NCBI RefSeq assembly: GCF_003668875.1
Contig: NZ_RAWM01000039.1
Span: forward strand, 2,394-66,393
DNA: 64,000 bases
DNA from: Corallococcus interemptor
Lineage (GTDB): Bacteria; Myxococcota; Myxococcia; Myxococcales; Myxococcaceae
Direction of reading: 5' to 3'
Below, piece after piece: positions 3,257 through 57,848 of the stretch; the stretch's first letter is position 1, and every line of letters begins with the position of its first letter. Under the pieces are notes generated by a model. It searched no databases. It was not told the DNA's origin and saw only the letters and a list, made by a program, of their open reading frames with translations. The translations under genes and the position numbers were made by a program.

Positions 3257-3961
3257 CTACTTCCTGGCCTTCTTCGCGGCCGGGAGCGACGCCGTCTTCG
3301 CGGCGGGCTTCTCCCGGGGGGCGGTCTTCTTGGACGAGGCGCCGGAGCGGGGCTCGTCCGACTCCTCGTCCTCCTCGTCGTCCTCGTCCCGGTCGCGCTC
3401 CGGGGCGGCGGGCGCCGGGGCGCTCGAGGCGGCCTCGGCGGAGGAGGCAGGGGCCGGGACGACCAGGCTCTCGCGGGGGACCTCCACCACGATGGGGGAC
3501 TGGCCGGAGCGCTGCCGGTTCTCGTCCTCCAGCGAGTAGAAGAGCTGGATCTGCGAGCCGCCCTTCATGACGAGCTCGCCCTTCTGGTTCTCCGCCCAGA
3601 GGTCGATTTCGACGAAGTACCGGCCGCCGGAGCCGTGGCGGTCGCTCACGCGGCCCTTGCAGACCACGGTGTCACCCGGCCACACCATCTTGATGAAGCG
3701 GACGTTGTAGCGCCGCAGCTGGCCGCCGCGGGCCCAGTCGCTGATGAGCTGGCCCAGCATGCCCATCACCAGCATGCCCGGGGCGTACACGGACGGCATC
3801 CCCACGCTCTTGGCGTAGATCTCGTCCACGTGCACCGGGTTGTAATCGCCGGAGGCGCCCGCGTAGCGCGACAGCTGGACGCGGTCCACCGGGGCCTTGG
3901 CCAGGGCCGGCAGCTCGTCACCGACGCGGATGGATTCGAAGTAGAGCTTGCGCGCGGGCAT
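3257..3961 (-). CDS. MaoC-like (R)-specific enoyl-CoA hydratase / hot-dog dehydratase with a Lys/Ala/Pro-rich acidic C-terminal tail
   Basis: Hot-dog fold motif (YAGASGDYNPVHVDEIYAKSVGMPSVYAPGML). Its ATG overlaps the stop of the upstream MaoC N-terminal-like gene (ATGA). It is in an operon with the acyl-CoA dehydrogenase. Confidence 0.8.
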   Translation of the reverse strand: MPARKLYFESIRVGDELPALAKAPVDRVQLSRYAGASGDYNPVHVDEIYAKSVGMPSVYAPGMLVMGMLGQLISDWARGGQLRRYNVRFIKMVWPGDTVVCKGRVSDRHGSGGRYFVEIDLWAENQKGELVMKGGSQIQLFYSLEDENRQRSGQSPIVVEVPRESLVVPAPASSAEAASSAPAPAAPERDRDEDDEEDEESDEPRSGASSKKTAPREKPAAKTASLPAAKKARK

Positions 3962-4410
3962 CAGGCGTTCTCCTTGGCGGCACGCACCACGAGGGTCCGG
4001 CGGGCGCGGAAGACGAGGTTGCCCTCTTCGTCCCGGCCTTCGTCCTCGATGACCGCGATGTCCATCTTGCCGGACATGCCCGGCCGCTCGAAGACGTCCG
4101 ACACGCGGGTGGACACGTAGATGCGGTCCCCCGCGAAGATGGGCCGCTCGTAGTCAAAGCCCTGCTCGGCGTGCAGCAGGCTCTTGATGCCCACCCCCAA
4201 CAGCTCCCGGAGGTCCGCGGCGGAATGGAACGACGCGGGAAACGTGGGCGGCGCGACGATGGTGGGGTAGCCCGAAGCGCGGGCGTACTCCTCGTCGTAG
4301 TAGATGGGATTGTAGTCGCCGATTGCCTCGGCGAAGCGCCGGATGGCGCCCTTCTCCACCTCGTTGAGCGTCGGCGGCGAGGCGCGGCCAATCGCGTTCT
4401 TGTCCAGCAT
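3961..4410 (-). CDS. MaoC N-terminal-like dehydratase subunit (hot-dog fold)
   Basis: 149 aa with a hot-dog-like sequence (GDYNPIYYDEEYARASGYPTIVAPPTF). It overlaps the downstream MaoC-like gene start, a pattern typical of two-gene split dehydratases. Confidence 0.75.
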   Translation of the reverse strand: MLDKNAIGRASPPTLNEVEKGAIRRFAEAIGDYNPIYYDEEYARASGYPTIVAPPTFPASFHSAADLRELLGVGIKSLLHAEQGFDYERPIFAGDRIYVSTRVSDVFERPGMSGKMDIAVIEDEGRDEEGNLVFRARRTLVVRAAKENA

Positions 4411-4430
4411 TTCCCTCTCCTGATGAATCT

Positions 4431-5432
4431 TCAGCGTCCTGACGGAAGCTCGAGCACCGTCAGGAGCCCGGCCTCCGCGGCCGTCAAACGTGGCGCGGCA
4501 TTCACCAGCGCGTTCGCGGTGGCCCGGTCGCCCGCCACTCCCCCCGGGATTTCCAGCACCAGTCTGGGATCCGCGTCGATTTCGATGCGATCCCGTGGGT
4601 TGTCCGCCCCCACAGCGATGGTCAGCTCCAGGCGGACCCGCTCCTGCCCCTCCTCCAAACCCACCACGGATTGGAACATGCCCGCGACGCGGCCTTTCTT
4701 CACGACAAATGCGCCGCCGGTGATGTCCTCCTCCGCGAAAACCGGAGTCACCTCTTCCTCGAAGTCATCACAGTCCAGCCCCAGCCCCAGCGCCGCCAGC
4801 GCCGCGGACTCCACCAGCCCCACGTGGCCCAGCTCCTCGCGGTCCACCAGGTCGAAGAACTCCTCCTCCGACAGGCCCGCGCCCACCTTGCGCTGCAGGG
4901 CTTCACGCCGCGTGCGGGCATCCACCACCCGGCTGGCCGTCACCTTGCGCACGGGGCCGCACACCTGCCCGGCCGTGGCGATGAGGCGATCCAGCACGAA
5001 GCCCGGGTTCACGCCCGTGCCCACGATGGCGACGCCCGCCTTCTGCGCGGCGCGCTCCAGCTTGTCCGCCAGCTCCGGATACTTCAGGTGCGGGAACGCC
5101 AGCTCCTCGCAGGTGCTGGCCACGGGCAGGCCCAGCTTCAGCGCGTCCAGCAGCTGATCCATCACCTGGGACAGCCGTGAGCTGGTGGCGTGCAGCACCA
5201 CCACGCCCTTGCGGCGCCCCACGGCCTTCTCCAGCGAGTCGGACACCTTGAAGCGCGGCCCGGCCTGCCCCAGCACGTCGCTGAAGGGGCGACCCACCAG
5301 GGAGGGCTGCGAGTCCACCGCGCCGATCAGTTCCACTTCGGGGGACGACAGGGCAGCCCTGGCAATCTCCTGCCCGATGAACCCCAGCCCCATCACCACC
5401 ACCGGCACCGGCCCATCAGGGGCTCTAGCCAT
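4431..5432 (-). CDS. NAD(P)-binding oxidoreductase of the dihydrodipicolinate-reductase (DapB-like) family
   Basis: N-terminal Rossmann motif (VVVMGLGFIGQEIARA). The overall layout resembles the DapB/2,4-diaminopentanoate dehydrogenase family. It is the first gene of the minus-strand operon. Confidence 0.6.
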   Translation of the reverse strand: MARAPDGPVPVVVMGLGFIGQEIARAALSSPEVELIGAVDSQPSLVGRPFSDVLGQAGPRFKVSDSLEKAVGRRKGVVVLHATSSRLSQVMDQLLDALKLGLPVASTCEELAFPHLKYPELADKLERAAQKAGVAIVGTGVNPGFVLDRLIATAGQVCGPVRKVTASRVVDARTRREALQRKVGAGLSEEEFFDLVDREELGHVGLVESAALAALGLGLDCDDFEEEVTPVFAEEDITGGAFVVKKGRVAGMFQSVVGLEEGQERVRLELTIAVGADNPRDRIEIDADPRLVLEIPGGVAGDRATANALVNAAPRLTAAEAGLLTVLELPSGR

Positions 5433-5679
5433 CGGAGATTGCTCCCGAATTCCAAGGGGTTACAGCCATTTACGTTGGGTAGGCGGCCACCATAGAACAC
5501 GGCTCGACGGGCAGGCAAGCAGGACGTGGAGTCCCGCGACCTCCGGTTTGAGTGAAACTTCAAGAATTCCGGTGCTTTAGCGGCACTGGAAAGCTTGGGG
5601 GGGCCTGTTTGGCCGTCTGCGGACCCGCTATAAGACTTTGAGAAAGAACGCAGTCTCTTTGCTTGGAGCGAACCTGCCC

Positions 5680-6801
5680 ATGGCCCGAATCCTCGTGGTG
5701 GACGACGACGTGCTCATCCTCGCGGCGCTGTCCCGGATCCTCCAGGCGGAGGGCTACGAGGTCGTGACGCACAGCGATCCGGTGGTGGCGGCGCGGGAGC
5801 AGGGCTTCGACGTCGTCCTGACGGACTTCATGATGCCGTACCTCAACGGCATCGAGCTGCTGTCCGCGCTACGGGAGAAGAACCCCCGCGCGGTGCGGCT
5901 GATGCTGACGGCGGCGGCGGACTTCAAGACGGCGTCCGAGGCGGTGAACCGGGGCGAGGTGTTCCGGCTGCTGGGCAAGCCGTGGGCGCTGAGCGATCTG
6001 ACCAGCAGCATCCGTCAGGCCTTCGAGCACCACCGGCTGGTGGCGGCCAACGAGCGGCTGACGCGCGAGGTGGCGGAGAAGAACGCGGAGCTCCTGGCCA
6101 TCAACGAGGGCCTGGAGCGCCGGGTCATGGAGCGCACCACGGGGCTGCTGGACGGGTTGATCAGCGCGCTGGACTACCGCGACACGGAGACGCAGTGGCA
6201 CTCGCGGCGCGTGTCGCTGTACGCGCGGCGGCTGGCGCAGGAGATCGGCCTCACCGGCGCGGCGCTGGACGTGGTGGAACAGGGCGCGCTCCTGCACGAC
6301 ATCGGGAAGATTGGCGTGCGCGACTCCATCCTGCTCAAGCCCGGCCCGCTCACGCCGGACGAGTGGGTGGAGATGAAGCTGCACCCGGAGTTCGGCTACC
6401 GGATGCTGGCGAAGATGCCCTACCTGCACGAGGCGGCGCTCATCGTCCTGCAGCACCAGGAGCGCTGGGATGGCAAGGGCTATCCGCTGGGGCTCAAGGG
6501 CGAGGAGATCGTCATCGGGGCGCGCATCTTCTGCCTTGTGGACACGCTGGACGCCATCACCTCCGACCGGCCCTATCGCAAGGGACGCCCGATGAGCGTC
6601 GCGCGCGATGAAGTGCGCCGCTGCGCGGGCACGCAGTTCGACCCGATGCTCGCGGAGGCGTTCCTCGGCCTGCCGGAGACGGAGTGGGCGCGCATCCGCC
6701 GCGAGGTGGAGGCGATGGAGGAGGCGGAGAGCCACCGCTGGACGTGCGCGAAGCTGGACGCGAACGGACAGCCCGTGCCCGCTCGCGCCGCCGGGGCCTG
6801 A
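5680..6801 (+). CDS. Two-component response regulator with HD-GYP output domain (probable c-di-GMP phosphodiesterase)
   Basis: A CheY-like receiver (ARILVVDDDVLILAAL...DVVLTDFMMP) is followed by an HD-GYP domain (HSRRVSL...LLHDIGKIGV...HQERWDGKGYP). The ORF begins at 5638, but the receiver starts at the ATG at 5680. Confidence 0.8.
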   Translation: MARILVVDDDVLILAALSRILQAEGYEVVTHSDPVVAAREQGFDVVLTDFMMPYLNGIELLSALREKNPRAVRLMLTAAADFKTASEAVNRGEVFRLLGKPWALSDLTSSIRQAFEHHRLVAANERLTREVAEKNAELLAINEGLERRVMERTTGLLDGLISALDYRDTETQWHSRRVSLYARRLAQEIGLTGAALDVVEQGALLHDIGKIGVRDSILLKPGPLTPDEWVEMKLHPEFGYRMLAKMPYLHEAALIVLQHQERWDGKGYPLGLKGEEIVIGARIFCLVDTLDAITSDRPYRKGRPMSVARDEVRRCAGTQFDPMLAEAFLGLPETEWARIRREVEAMEEAESHRWTCAKLDANGQPVPARAAGA

Positions 6802-52630: not shown

Positions 52631-53626
52631 TCAGCCGATGCGCTTGAGTTCCTGGGTCAGCAGCTCCTCCAGGTGCCGGATGTTCTTGTAGACGAGGCAC
52701 CGGTAGCTGGACACGTCGAAGCGCAATTCCTTCACGTCGCGCACCAGCATCAGGGTGGGCTTGCCGCGTCCCCAGGCATAGCCCACCTCCAGATAGACAT
52801 TGGGGTTCGCCAGCGACAGGTCCGCGATGACGACCTTCGCGGTGTCGATGCGGTCCCGGATGCGCTGGATGATGGGGCCGTCGAAGACGGCCTGGTCCAC
52901 GCGCTCGCACAGCAGCCCGGCCGCCTTCACCGGGTTCAGGATGCCGTAGTGGTAGGTGTCCTCCAGCTCCGGCGCGAAGGGCATCGCCACGAAGGCATGC
53001 GGCTTCTCGTGGGAGTTCGCCCCCGCGGAGGCCATGGGCAGCGCCTGGACGAAGCGGGACATCCGCCGGACGCGGAAGCCCGTGGCCCCCATCAGCGGCT
53101 CCACGCCCGGCGTGAGCCCCATCCCTAGCGCCAACGCCTTGCGCAGCCGCTCCACCCGCTTGGGGTTCAGCTCCACCACCGTGATGCGCTCCAGGCCGCG
53201 CGGTCCGCTGCCGCGCTGGAACGCGTCCACGAAGCCGCCCACCAGGGCCAGCACGGCCTCGTCCTCGTCCAGGCCGTAGTTGGGCCCGTGCACCGTGCAC
53301 GCCAGGTGACGCACGTCCTGCCGGGACTCCAGCAGTTGGAGCGCGCGCACGGAGAACTGGCGGATCTCGTGGTAGCCGAACTGCCGCAGCCGCACCGTGC
53401 CCAGGAAGAGCACCACCGGAGCGCCCAGGCACCGGCGCGTCTCGATGAAGCGGTGGTCCCCGGGGAGCAGGTCGAAGGTGTCCATGCCCACGCCCGCCCC
53501 CTCCAGCCGGCGCGCCACCGCGCCGTCCGCACCGTGGAAGCCCTGCGCGTACTTCAGCAGGACGGCGTCCGCGGCCGTCTCCCCCACGTCCCCCAGGTCC
53601 ACCACGACGTCCAGCGTGTCTCCCAT
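52631..53626 (-). CDS. Hypothetical two-domain protein; C-terminal nucleoside-2-deoxyribosyltransferase-like (SLOG/TIR-like) domain
   Basis: C-terminal motif AFVAMPFAPE...KVVIADLSLANPNVYLEVGYAWGRGKPTLMLV matches the hallmark of Nuc_deoxyrib_tr-like SLOG domains (early-strand F/P, then ADLS..NPNV..E.GYA.G.GKP). The N-terminal 200 aa are unassigned. Start set at the ATG at 53626. Confidence 0.55.
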   Translation of the reverse strand: MGDTLDVVVDLGDVGETAADAVLLKYAQGFHGADGAVARRLEGAGVGMDTFDLLPGDHRFIETRRCLGAPVVLFLGTVRLRQFGYHEIRQFSVRALQLLESRQDVRHLACTVHGPNYGLDEDEAVLALVGGFVDAFQRGSGPRGLERITVVELNPKRVERLRKALALGMGLTPGVEPLMGATGFRVRRMSRFVQALPMASAGANSHEKPHAFVAMPFAPELEDTYHYGILNPVKAAGLLCERVDQAVFDGPIIQRIRDRIDTAKVVIADLSLANPNVYLEVGYAWGRGKPTLMLVRDVKELRFDVSSYRCLVYKNIRHLEELLTQELKRIG

Positions 53627-53840
53627 GGGGCCGGGACTGTAGGGCGCCCCGGTCCGCCCACGCCATCCCCGCGGCCCGGCGCCCCGCGTCAGGAGGCCCC
53701 AAACACAGACGTGGAAAAGCCCCGTCAATCCCTGTTCAATGGCGCCCTTCGCCTGCCTGGCTGTCATTCAGGCCGCCACCGCCCTGCCTGTGAAGCGCTT
53801 CACAGTTTCCGCCTGGCCGGGCCGGTAGCATTTGCACACC

Positions 53841-54734
53841 ATGTCCCTGTTCGCGCGCCTGCAGGCCCTGCTGTCCGCCCACCCGTCCGCCCCGGAGGCT
53901 GCTCCCGGTCAGACGCCCGCGACCGCCATCGCCCCCACGGCGGCGGCCGCACCGGGGGAGGTGGTGGACACGGCCTCCGCGCCTCCGGTCTGCACGCGCT
54001 ACCTGCCCGCGGGACAGGTGGTGGTGCGGGAGGGAGACCCGGGGCACTCCATGTTCGTCGTGCTGGAGGGCCGCGTCGCGGTGCTGCGCGGCAGCGACAA
54101 CGGCGTCAACACGGAGGTCGGCCGCCTGGGCGCCGGCGAGTTCTTCGGGGAGCTGGCGCTGCTCACCGGCACGCAGCGCACCGCCACCATCGTGACGGTG
54201 GAGGACGCCGTGCTGCTGGAGCTCACCCAGGCGGGCGTCCGGGAGCTGGGCAAGGACTACGGCGTGAAGGGGGATCAGATGCAGGAGACCGCCCGGGAGC
54301 GCCTGCTCGCGGACGCCCTGCGCAGCAACCCGCTCATCGCCGCCCTCCCCTCGGATGTGCAGCACGACCTGGGAGATGCCTTCGTCCCCGTCACCGTCCC
54401 CGCCGGAGAGACGCTGCTCACCCGGGGCCAGCCGGGCGACGCGCTCTACGTCCTCATCCGGGGCCAGTGCGAGGTCTTCCACACGCACGGTGACGGCCGC
54501 CAGTCCGCCTATCCCAAGCTGGAGGAAGGCGCCCTCTTCGGAGAAATCTCCCTGCTGCGCAGCCGGCTGGCCACCGCCACCGTGCGCACCGTGACGCCCT
54601 GCACGCTCCTCAAGCTGGAGCGCGACGTGTTCAAGAAGGCCTTCCTGGGCCAGCCCGACCTGCGCGGCGCCCTGGTGCGCCTGGGCCTGGAGCGGCTCAA
54701 GCACACGATGGAAGTCATGGGCGAGCCGAAGTAG
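53841..54734 (+). CDS. Protein with two tandem cyclic-nucleotide-binding (CAP-effector) domains and no output domain
   Basis: Two cNMP-binding signatures (FGELALLTGTQRTATIVT ; FGEISLLRSRLATATVRT). Confidence 0.8.
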   Translation: MSLFARLQALLSAHPSAPEAAPGQTPATAIAPTAAAAPGEVVDTASAPPVCTRYLPAGQVVVREGDPGHSMFVVLEGRVAVLRGSDNGVNTEVGRLGAGEFFGELALLTGTQRTATIVTVEDAVLLELTQAGVRELGKDYGVKGDQMQETARERLLADALRSNPLIAALPSDVQHDLGDAFVPVTVPAGETLLTRGQPGDALYVLIRGQCEVFHTHGDGRQSAYPKLEEGALFGEISLLRSRLATATVRTVTPCTLLKLERDVFKKAFLGQPDLRGALVRLGLERLKHTMEVMGEPK

Positions 54735-55660: not shown

Positions 55661-56416
55661 ATGAAACACGCCATGGCTGATTCCACCTCCCGTCCGCCGA
55701 ACGCCGTCCCGCCCTCGCTCGCCCGCGTGGCCTTCCACGCCATGGCGGCCGGCCTCACCCCGCTCATCCCGGTGCCCTTCCTGGACGACTACGCCCTGCG
55801 CCAGGTGCGCGAGCAGTCCGTGAGGGATCAGCTCAAGGAGCGGGGCCTGAAGGCGCCGGACAAGGCCGTGGCGGTGCTCGCCGGCTCGTATGAGACGCGC
55901 AGCCTGGGCGGACAGCTGGTGTCCTATCTCAAGGCCGTGGCGCTCTTCCCCGTGCGCAAGGTGTTCCGCAAGGTCTTCTTCGTCCTCTGGGTGAAGGACT
56001 GCGTGGACCTGACGAGCGTGTGCCTGCACCACGGCTACCTGCTGCACCACGCGCTGGAGCGCGGCGACCTGGACGCGGCCTCGCTCCAGGGGGAGGCGCC
56101 CCGGAAGGTGCAGGCCGCCATCGTCGCCGCCTGCGCGGAGATGGACTCCCGCCCCATCAACCAGGCCCTGCGCCGCCTCTTCCGGAGCAGCCGCGTGCTG
56201 ATGGCGGAGGCCACGCGCGCCTTCCTGGATCCAAAGCGCGGCCCCCGCGTGCCCGACCCGAAGGCCGAGAACGCGGAGGTGAGGTCCCTCACCGACCGGC
56301 TGCTCCAGGAGCTGTGGGAGGAGCGCGGCTATTTCACCGCGCTGGAGGCGCACTACGACAAGCAACTGAAGACCGGCCTCGCCGCCACGGAGCCCCGGGC
56401 CGCGACGGGCACCTGA
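55661..56416 (+). CDS. Hypothetical protein
   Basis: 251 aa with protein-like composition. No recognised motif. Confidence 0.45.
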   Translation: MKHAMADSTSRPPNAVPPSLARVAFHAMAAGLTPLIPVPFLDDYALRQVREQSVRDQLKERGLKAPDKAVAVLAGSYETRSLGGQLVSYLKAVALFPVRKVFRKVFFVLWVKDCVDLTSVCLHHGYLLHHALERGDLDAASLQGEAPRKVQAAIVAACAEMDSRPINQALRRLFRSSRVLMAEATRAFLDPKRGPRVPDPKAENAEVRSLTDRLLQELWEERGYFTALEAHYDKQLKTGLAATEPRAATGT

Positions 56417-56422
56417 AAGCGC

Positions 56423-57430
56423 TCAGGGCACGGGCGCGGCGGCGGTCTCCAGCGGCGCGCGGATGCGAGCGGAGAAGTCCTCCCGCCCCTGCGCGGCCAG
56501 CGCGCGCGCGTTGATGTGATAGCGCTGGCGCACCTGCTCCAGCGGCGCGTCCGTGTCGATGATGCCCAGCTCATACGCGAGCGCGTCCGAGAACGCCGGC
56601 ATCAGCGTGCGGTGATCGTACGGAACATCCTTCGTGGCCACCTTCTCGAAGTGGTGCACCAGGTTGGTGGTGCAGTTGCTCGTCAGCGTGTCGTAGAACT
56701 CCGGCCGCGTGTGCAGCCCGTTCATGCGCTCCACCATGTCCATGAAGAACGCGGTGATGCGCTCCTTCGACGCGTTCACCGGATACACATACACGTCGTC
56801 GTGACGGAAGTTGGAGCGCAGCTGCACCAGGTCCCGCTCGTCCCCCACGACGTAGGTGATTTCAAAGCGGCGGAACAGGCCGCCCAGCGCGGAGAACGTC
56901 TCGCCCTGCTCGCGCCGCACCTCCACGGAGAACACCACGTGGCGGCCGTCCTGGAAGCCGAAGCTCACCATGGTGTGCGCGGCGCCATAGAAGCCGGAGA
57001 AGGGCTCCACGATGAACGACGCGTCCGTGAGCGCGGCCGTGTCGTAGGTGGCCGTGTACCAGGCCGGGTCCCAGTCCGTGGTGCTGCGGTAGCGGAAGTC
57101 ACGCACGTCGTGCAGCGTCACCTGCGTGCCGGACACCTCCGCCCACGGCGCTCGCGCCAGGTCCGGCGCCCAGTCGCGCGTGTTGGAGGGCCGCACCGTC
57201 TGGATCCACCCGTACACGCCCAGGCAGCCCAGCAGCATCACCGCCACACCCCAGCGCCGTGAGCGCCACCGCCAGGCCGCCACGGCCAGCGCCGCCAGGG
57301 CCCCCGCCAGGAGGCCGCGGGCCACGTGCGGCCCCTCCGGCCCCGTCCCCGTCAGGGCCAGGGCCAGCGAGGCCCAGGCGCCTCCCACGAGGAGCACGAG
57401 CCCCGACACGGCGTTCTTCCAGATGCGCAT
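56423..57430 (-). CDS. DUF4105 (Lnb-like) family membrane protein
   Basis: An N-terminal TM pair is followed by a DUF4105-like region ([27 protein letters not shown]...HTMVSFGF). Confidence 0.7.
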
Positions 57431-57620: not shown

Positions 57621-57848
57621 ATGAGCGACGAGCGCGAAGACACGACCGTTTACAAGGTCGTCGTCAACCACGAAGAGCAGTACTCCATCTGGCCCGCGGA
57701 CCGGGAGAACGCGCTGGGCTGGAAGGACGCCGGCAAGCAGGGCCTGAAGGCCGAGTGCCTGGAGTACATCAAGGAGGTCTGGACGGACATGCGCCCCCTG
57801 AGCCTCCGCAAGAAGATGGAAGAGGACGCGGCCCGCAACAAGAACTGA
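57621..57848 (+). CDS. MbtH-like protein
   Basis: Canonical MbtH signature ([52 protein letters not shown]), with 3 Trp and conserved SxWP. 75 aa. Confidence 0.85.

Follow-up and report, generated by a model that had tools for sequence, protein, structure and literature searches.

In a 64,000-nucleotide stretch of Corallococcus interemptor DNA (contig NZ_RAWM01000039.1; hereafter the window, with a G+C content of ~70%), we found that a minus-strand gene encodes a self-contained two-domain protein, whose model has a divergent macro domain at the N-terminus and a DrHyd domain at the C-terminus, connected by a flexible linker. With a probability of about 0.5, we consider this protein to be a self-contained enzyme that acts as an effector in NAD+/ADP-ribose (ADPr)-centred immunity or cell death. 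An earlier reading of the sequence (the original prediction) had described a SLOG/TIR-like protein paired with a divergently transcribed cyclic nucleotide monophosphate (cNMP)-binding protein in a nucleotide-signalling, possibly defence-related module. The results showed that a link to nucleotide/NAD conflict systems is suggested by the domain fusions of the relatives, and not by the cNMP pairing.

The longest open reading frame (ORF) at this position, 52631–53767 on the minus strand, comprises 378 aa from the first ATG and contains the strings AFVAMPF and KVVIADLSLANPNVYLEVGYAWGRGKPTLMLV on which the original prediction was built. Since more than 100 homologues are ~331 aa long and align from M48 (MGDTLDVVV), we took M48 as the true start and 52631–53626 as the gene. 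The 47 codons 5' of M48 (53627–53767, minus strand) form an ORF extension that is not conserved among the homologues. Similar unconserved N-terminal extensions are annotated in MXAN_3123 (350 aa) and in the relatives P0002, P0007 and P0049; such extensions are probably mis-called starts. The features of the gene are as follows.

52631–53626, minus strand: Macro-DrHyd gene, 331 aa plus stop, orthologue of MXAN_3123 of M. xanthus (codon coordinates verified).
53057–53626, minus strand: divergent macro-fold domain, aa 1–190, with near-invariant D20, K25, A27, G32, D34, Y85, T111, H113, G114, G118, D120 and E123.
53009–53056, minus strand: inter-domain linker, aa 191–206, variable and predicted to be disordered, with gappy, poorly conserved alignment columns.
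52634–53008, minus strand: DrHyd domain (nucleoside 2-deoxyribosyltransferase-like, TIR-related), aa 207–331, with the motifs HAFVAMPF, LCERVD, NPNVYLEVGYAWG and FD, and Y313.
52991–52993, minus strand: codon of F212, the position after strand 1.
52787–52789, minus strand: codon of E280, a Glu at the canonical TIR/NDT catalytic position.

The protein was 94% identical to proteins of C. exercitus and C. coralloides. Its AlphaFold2 (AF2) model had a predicted local distance difference test score (pLDDT) of 84.6, falling below 50 at residues 194–206 of the linker.

The C-terminal ~125 aa constitute a DrHyd domain of the TIR/DrHyd/SLOG clade, in which the DrHyd superfamily has been united with TIR and SLOG by Aravind's group (PMC9503650). 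The Pfam model Nuc_deoxyrib_tr (PF05014) scored the window protein at 24.2–24.6 bits, under its cut-off of 28.8 bits, and, with E values up to 1 accepted, it found 98 of 100 diverse relatives (best E 1.4e-9); close orthologues carry a precomputed match to the same model. When the protein was compared by phmmer with the sequences of the PDB, 'NVYLEVGYAWGRGKP' was aligned to 'GTHVEIGWASGMGKP' of the CMP hydrolase MilB, and the domain has the three-layer alpha/beta (flavodoxin-like) fold of NDT, DNPH1 and MilB. It also shows the TIR fold with a catalytic Glu in alpha-C. The PADLOC 'TIR effector' model PDLC00733 matched it with an E of 1.2e-13, and the Pfam models TIR_2 and CAP12-PCTIR_TIR gave weak matches in 2 and 15 of the 100 relatives, respectively. 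SLOG/LOG proteins were found neither by the sequence models nor among the closest fold neighbours. Thus, the Nuc_deoxyrib_tr-like part of the original assignment stood, whereas its SLOG label was replaced by that of an NDT-like DrHyd domain.

A conserved catalytic Glu, which the original prediction had named as the residue to look for, was present at the canonical position. In the phmmer alignment E280 corresponds to the Glu of 'HVEIGWA' in MilB; in the AF2 model it lies in helix 275–286, after strand 265–269 (strand 3), and 133 of 146 cluster representatives keep it. The residue that follows strand 1 differs from that of the true deoxyribosyltransferases. In NDT and DNPH1 a Tyr at this position enforces 2'-deoxy specificity, and NADase TIRs have Phe or Ala there (PMC11204291). 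Residue 212 is Phe in 138 of 148 representatives and Tyr in four, its equivalence to the NDT Tyr being deduced from motif alignment (hAFVAMPF against IYFxGxxF). Because the Tyr that is hydrogen-bonded to the Glu in true NDT/DNPH1 is F212 here, we did not file the protein as a true deoxyribosyltransferase; F212 suggests ribo- or NAD-type substrates, and the database name 'nucleoside 2-deoxyribosyltransferase' is probably wrong about the substrate. Our preferred reading is a macro-regulated N-glycosidase, probably an NADase.

The domain also contains C240-E241-R242 (52901–52909, minus strand) in the 'LCERVD' motif at the end of strand 2, with the Cys conserved in 140 and the Glu in 143 of 148 representatives. 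The motif may serve ligand binding, contact the macro domain or form a second catalytic site.

The N-terminal part of the protein, ~200 aa that the original prediction had left unassigned, has a macro fold over its first 190 aa, as Foldseek gave macro-domain TM-scores of 0.65–0.72 (normalised to the targets). At the level of sequence it is very divergent: only Peptidase_M17_N, the leucyl aminopeptidase (LAP) N-domain of the macro clan, gave matches, in 13 of 100 relatives (best E 2.9e-5), and a family profile recovered no macro sequences from the PDB sequences. The conserved positions are a G-D13 motif, D20, K25 (142 of 144), A27, G32-A-D34 and Y85 (146 of 146), together with a second stretch, T111-x-H113-G114-x-G/N-x-G118-L-D120-E-x-E123, in which D120 is present in 147 of 147 proteins. 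By eye, these residues coincide with the adenine-contacting Asp and the two phosphate-binding loops of macro domains (canonical GDIT, GGG and GxxG). Binding of an ADP-ribose-type ligand is therefore plausible.

The ~331-aa Macro-DrHyd protein was found throughout Myxococcota, including M. xanthus (MXAN_3123), and in at least seven other phyla; the further taxa were Acidobacteriota, Chloroflexota, Nostocales, Binatia, Longimicrobium, Bacteroidota, Alphaproteobacteria and a Methanosarcina metagenome-assembled genome (MAG). A genome scan confirmed at least 534 relatives (in at least 534 species), and an exhaustive search returned 397 clusters at 50% identity with E <1e-30. The accessible literature contained no description of the Macro-DrHyd dyad or MXAN_3123; Burroughs et al. 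2015 (NAR) and Burroughs & Aravind 2020 (J Bacteriol) lay outside the search and may mention it. Three 'uncultured Enterobacterales' MAG labels (L051, L052 and L059) look doubtful, the family being otherwise found in Myxococcota-like genomes. The assembly 'Comamonas sp. KCTC 72670' (L030, BNCN01000010.1), which shows full Myxococcus-type synteny at 65–88% protein identity, looks mislabelled or contaminated.

About a quarter of the cluster representatives (40 of 148) are extended by 80 aa or more. In a hand-picked set of 42 extended proteins, Pfam identified TIR_2 in 23, EAD7 in five, EAD1 and CHAT in two each, and bDLD1, DUF4062, HD and an astacin-like domain in one each. TIR-Macro-DrHyd proteins were found in two Ktedonobacteraceae and a caspase-Macro-DrHyd protein in the Methanosarcina MAG; there were also TIR-fused forms encoded by single genes that have no partner, and the contigs of the EAD-fused relatives were too short for their context to be informative. 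EAD1, EAD7 and bDLD are adaptors that recruit effectors, and DRHyd and Macro have been listed among NAD-related effector domains (Kaur et al. 2020, PMC7159879). Taken together, the fusion partners point to a place for the Macro-DrHyd dyad among the effectors of NAD+/ADP-ribose conflict systems.

Two relatives deserve separate mention. In L087, a CHAT-Macro-DrHyd protein of 741 aa is encoded ~650 bp downstream of an nSTAND1-WD40 NTPase (1360–2808 and 3463–5688), and it was the sole fused relative found adjoining a STAND NTPase. On plasmid p334 of Bacillus mycoides, a 317-aa 'nucleoside 2-deoxyribosyltransferase' (L081:3434–4387, plus strand) shares the DrHyd cassette only (hhalign probability 98.4%), and the N-terminal domain ahead of the cassette is unrelated. 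Its neighbours are integrase, recombinase, HNH and XkdX genes, and it may be a mobile sensor-effector relative; the cassette is consistent with a C-terminal DrHyd effector placed behind variable N-terminal regulators.

Comparison of the standalone and fused forms showed that E280 is retained in 105 of 106 standalone and 28 of 40 fused proteins; its absence from 12 of 40 fused as against 1 of 106 standalone forms gave a Fisher p of 4.8e-7, a statistic in which related sequences are counted. The E280-less proteins keep D223, C240, E241, Y313 and the macro residues. When ten of them were scanned, an N-terminal TIR was recognised in seven, EAD1 and EAD7 in one each and no such domain in the last; the TIRs of the group in which the Glu is changed to Gln retain the W-x-x-x-E catalytic motif. 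Most of the losses are thus found in forms with an added TIR that is apparently active. These sequences suggest that a canonical TIR can take over the role of the DrHyd Glu. As a TIR seems able to replace this Glu, the ancestral DrHyd reaction may have been TIR-like.

We infer the substrate, the macro ligand and the biological role as follows. The DrHyd domain would be an active N-glycosidase whose substrate is a ribo-nucleotide, with NAD+ or an ADP-ribose derivative as the most likely candidates, and its reaction would be TIR-like, with NAD+ cleaved or depleted or an ADPr-type product made. For the macro domain, we propose that it binds a ligand of the ADP-ribose type and either gates the DrHyd domain as a sensor, comparable with the Thoeris ThsA macro domain and SLOG sensors, or processes the DrHyd product. 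As a precedent, TIR-made ADPr signals are known to be sensed by macro and SLOG domains (10.64898/2025.12.03.692087). The module would then act as an effector in the NAD+/ADPr immunity and programmed-cell-death network typical of multicellular bacteria.

Several observations weigh against this explanation. First, the macro assignment holds at the fold level only: even with E values up to 1 accepted, neither the window protein nor any of 100 relatives matched the Pfam Macro models (PF01661 and PF14519), K25-x-A27-Q28 and G-A-D stand in place of the catalytic Asn and the GGG loop of the MacroD type, and we know of no ADP-ribose binding by the LAP N-domain. Secondly, C240 and E241 are more conserved than E280 and are retained in the E280-less proteins. 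Thirdly, related sequences are counted in the E280 statistic: the six TIR forms with a Q appear to make up a single clade, and the independent events are therefore fewer than the counts suggest. In addition, two EAD-fused members lack E280, showing that the DrHyd Glu is not always required. Finally, the genomic setting of the standalone form is atypical for defence genes. PADLOC revealed no defence-island enrichment among the 107 nearest neighbours in distant loci, apart from a single SduA and sporadic methyltransferase-like matches. A search with a hidden Markov model built from the fused TIRs, which divergent TIRs could escape, covered the window and the flanking regions of 80 loci and found no TIR ORF other than the cis-fused L075 and L079. 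No full-length copy was present in the phage and plasmid collections, and the standalone form is vertically inherited, syntenic in Myxococcaceae and located among housekeeping genes.

The Corallococcus copy is such a vertically inherited standalone form. Its synteny with a D-Ser-dehydratase-like gene downstream, and with further flanking genes, is kept in Corallococcus, Myxococcus and Pyxidicoccus. The divergent upstream slot holds the cNMP and YdeI genes in Corallococcus (where one clade has an alpha/beta-hydrolase ORF in addition), monooxygenase (in Myxococcus, styrene-monooxygenase-like) and ketopantoate-reductase (ApbA) genes in Myxococcus and Pyxidicoccus, and subtilase, PilP-like, CitMHS or unknown genes elsewhere. 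All-against-all clustering of the flank ORFs brought up an apparently conserved neighbour in 67 loci, which we rejected as an antisense shadow ORF of the Macro-DrHyd gene, an artefact of the high-GC genomes; after frame-composition filtering, no neighbour conserved across phyla was left. An operon with the tight same-strand upstream genes of distant loci was likewise rejected, as these are unrelated housekeeping genes (squalene-hopene cyclase, amidase, ThrE, AstA, PMT_2 and Ser/Thr kinase). The 107 nearest neighbours fell into 98 different Pfam families, none of them recurrent.

This setting favours the main rival explanation, that the protein serves housekeeping nucleotide or ADP-ribose metabolism. 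In that case the DrHyd domain would catalyse N-glycosidic hydrolysis (like MilB, DNPH1/Rcl or LOG-type enzymes) for salvage or detoxification, and the ligand or substrate of the macro domain would be a free ADPr metabolite, e.g. O-acetyl-ADPr or ADPr-1''-phosphate. A metabolic enzyme would be in keeping with a single-copy-like gene that is syntenic and strongly conserved in Myxococcaceae, with its ordinary metabolic neighbours and lack of defence enrichment in more than 40 distant loci, and with its absence from phages and plasmids. However, unlike metabolic enzymes, the dyad is recurrently fused to TIR, caspase/CHAT, HD and EAD/Death-like adaptor domains; moreover, no pathway gene stands with it in a conserved operon, and its phyletic pattern is patchy across phyla rather than universal. 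We regard a housekeeping function as the most serious competitor, albeit a less likely one.

Considerably less probable is that the protein reverses or repairs ADP-ribosylation. According to this explanation, the macro domain acts like DarG, MacroD and TARG1 in stripping ADP-ribose off protein or nucleic acid, the nucleotide, whether released or still attached, is processed by the DrHyd domain, and the protein is an antitoxin-like or repair factor against ADP-ribosylating toxins. The invariant charged residues K25, D120, E123 and H113 of the macro domain do suggest catalysis over mere binding. On the other hand, the catalytic Asn/Asp/GGG motifs of MacroD are not conserved, the flanks contain no genes for ADP-ribosyltransferase (ART), DarT or sirtuin partners, and the replacement of the DrHyd catalytic Glu by a TIR is left unexplained.

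The effector reading is set in context by comparison with known systems. Like NDT, DNPH1, MilB and BlsM of PF05014, the protein has its Glu in the helix after strand 3 within an 'xxExG(Y/W)A' motif. Unlike these, it falls below the Pfam cut-off and has Phe in place of Tyr, so that it is probably not 2'-deoxy-specific; the Macro-DrHyd family further differs in the extra invariant C240-E241-R242, D223, D304 and Y313, in a macro domain that always precedes the DrHyd domain, and in its conflict-system fusion partners. With the TIR NADases and signal generators (SARM1, plant TIRs, ThsB and PycTIR/CAP12-type) it shares the Phe at the NADase-TIR position and the PADLOC 'TIR effector' match, and a canonical TIR apparently substitutes for the DrHyd Glu in the fused relatives. 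In contrast to TIRs, the DrHyd domain is structurally nearer to MilB/NDT, Pfam TIR models weakly match no more than 2 of 100 relatives, and there is no evidence of TIR-style BB-loop oligomerisation.

The Thoeris effector ThsA has a SIR2-SLOG architecture in type I and a macro-transmembrane (TM) architecture in type II. Unlike Thoeris, neither the window nor the 80 loci contain an adjacent ThsB (TIR) gene, and there is no defence island. The putative effector domain of the window protein is DrHyd, not SIR2 or TM, and its macro domain is much nearer to the PARP9/PARP14/MacroD type than that of ThsA. Parallels exist with the EAD/Death-like-adaptor systems (Kaur, Burroughs, Iyer, Aravind 2020/2021), as relatives carry EAD1, EAD7, bDLD1, TIR and caspase/CHAT domains, one relative adjoins an nSTAND1-WD40 NTPase, and the same taxa (Myxococcota, Nostocales and Ktedonobacteria) are involved. 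However, the window protein has neither an adaptor nor an NTPase neighbour, and the resemblance applies to some relatives only.

The divergent neighbour of the gene was examined together with the intergenic region. The corresponding features are as follows.

53627–53831, strand not assigned: divergent intergenic region of 205 bp (sequence read).
53832–54734, plus strand: dual cNMP-binding protein, 300 aa from TTG or 297 aa from the ATG at 53841.

Two cNMP-binding domains were confirmed in the neighbour (PF00027 twice, E 1.5e-46), and setting the gene start at M48 makes the gap 205 bp, in agreement with the ~200 bp reported previously. The protein is 99% identical to a Corallococcus interemptor protein. 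The phosphate-binding cassette of its first domain is canonical (FGELALL...RTAT). The second (54500–54620, plus strand) reads FGEISLLRSRLATAT and, by eye, apparently lacks the Arg at the canonical position; it may be degenerate. The promoter scan gave no sigma-70-type site in 53627–53831, and Rfam gave no matches at E up to 1 over 50–58 kb.

A cNMP-binding protein adjoining a TIR-like protein has, superficially, the look of a split PycTIR, and a very unlikely explanation is that the two make up a split module of the Pycsar kind, with the cNMP sensor in control of the nucleotide-processing enzyme, as a lineage-specific coupling. It could draw on the divergent adjacency, which is found here and in the closest Corallococcus genomes, and on PADLOC, in which the cNMP protein matched cNMP-TIR effector models and the C-terminal domain of the Macro-DrHyd protein the 'TIR effector' model; the former matches, however, come through the cNMP-binding domains and are generic to that domain. 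The adjacency is confined to Corallococcus, and even there one clade has the cNMP gene ~0.9 kb away, with an alpha/beta-hydrolase-like ORF of ~339 aa (Hydrolase_4/DLH matches) interposed at ~5000–6000 in the locus coordinates of L006, L008, L009, L011 and L044. No cNMP gene was found at the Myxococcus/Pyxidicoccus loci, where the flanks remain syntenic and the slot is occupied by the monooxygenase and ketopantoate-reductase genes, or at any of the 43 more distant loci. Both Pyxidicoccus and Myxococcus have full-length cNMP orthologues (64–66% identity); those of two Pyxidicoccus genomes stand in a conserved context of their own (Dak1/Dak2 – small ORF – cNMP – CBS – NMO), and the Macro-DrHyd gene was not within 7 kb of them. 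Furthermore, unlike Pycsar, which combines PycC with a cNMP-binding TIR/TM effector, the flanking genes scanned (~49.7–58.7 kb) include no nucleotide cyclase. Thus, since the two genes do not co-occur in related genomes, the observation that the original prediction itself had named as decisive against the pairing, the cNMP neighbour is a genus-specific coincidence and not part of the Macro-DrHyd module.

Least likely of all is a non-catalytic ligand sensor or scaffold, in which both domains only bind nucleotides (as in ThsA SLOG/macro) and signal to unlinked partners: some members without E280 keep every other conserved residue and inactive TIR/DrHyd/SLOG domains are known as sensors (PMC9503650), but E280 is present in 105 of 106 standalone forms, and the standalone protein has neither an output domain nor a conserved partner.

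The other genes scanned around the Macro-DrHyd gene coded for an Ala-racemase-N/D-Ser dehydratase-like protein, YdeI/OmdA, a protein without Pfam match, an Lnb_N-domain protein and LuxR; further upstream, an aldo-keto reductase, TetR and a prolyl oligopeptidase were read from the translations. The protein without Pfam match (55661–56416, plus strand; 251 aa) also had no PADLOC or NCBIfam match, and it is conserved and syntenic with the Lnb_N-domain gene (56423–57430) in Corallococcus, Myxococcus and Pyxidicoccus. A small ORF at 57627–57848 (plus strand) is MbtH-like (E 9e-25 to MbtH-like PDB chains, including PA2412), which suggests a nonribosomal peptide synthetase cluster nearby.

A more specific form of the effector reading can be proposed, although we hold it to be speculative. 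In social bacteria, the standalone Macro-DrHyd protein would act as a free-standing 'hub', an effector in TIR-type immunity or in developmental cell death, and its macro domain would sense an ADP-ribose-derived second messenger. The messenger would be made in trans by any of the numerous unlinked TIR/DrHyd sensors of the genome, and its binding would switch on the DrHyd NADase. If true, this would be a Thoeris-like circuit in which the sensor and effector genes are unlinked and chromosomally fixed, as well as a new class of ligand-gated DrHyd (non-TIR, non-SIR2) NADases.

In practical terms, the database label 'nucleoside 2-deoxyribosyltransferase' would be corrected. If the broader proposal of an NAD+/ADPr-centred effector is true, it would concern a large uncharacterised family that includes the conserved M. 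xanthus gene MXAN_3123; DrHyd would become a third catalytic chassis beside TIR and SIR2 in NAD+/ADP-ribose immunity, and the N-terminal domain would represent a new macro-domain clade. The loss of the Glu where a TIR has been gained would be a natural experiment on whether DrHyd and TIR are functionally equivalent. Finally, social bacteria that undergo developmental lysis have the gene fixed in their core genome, and it may therefore provide a tractable handle on whether developmental cell death has co-opted immune-type NADases.

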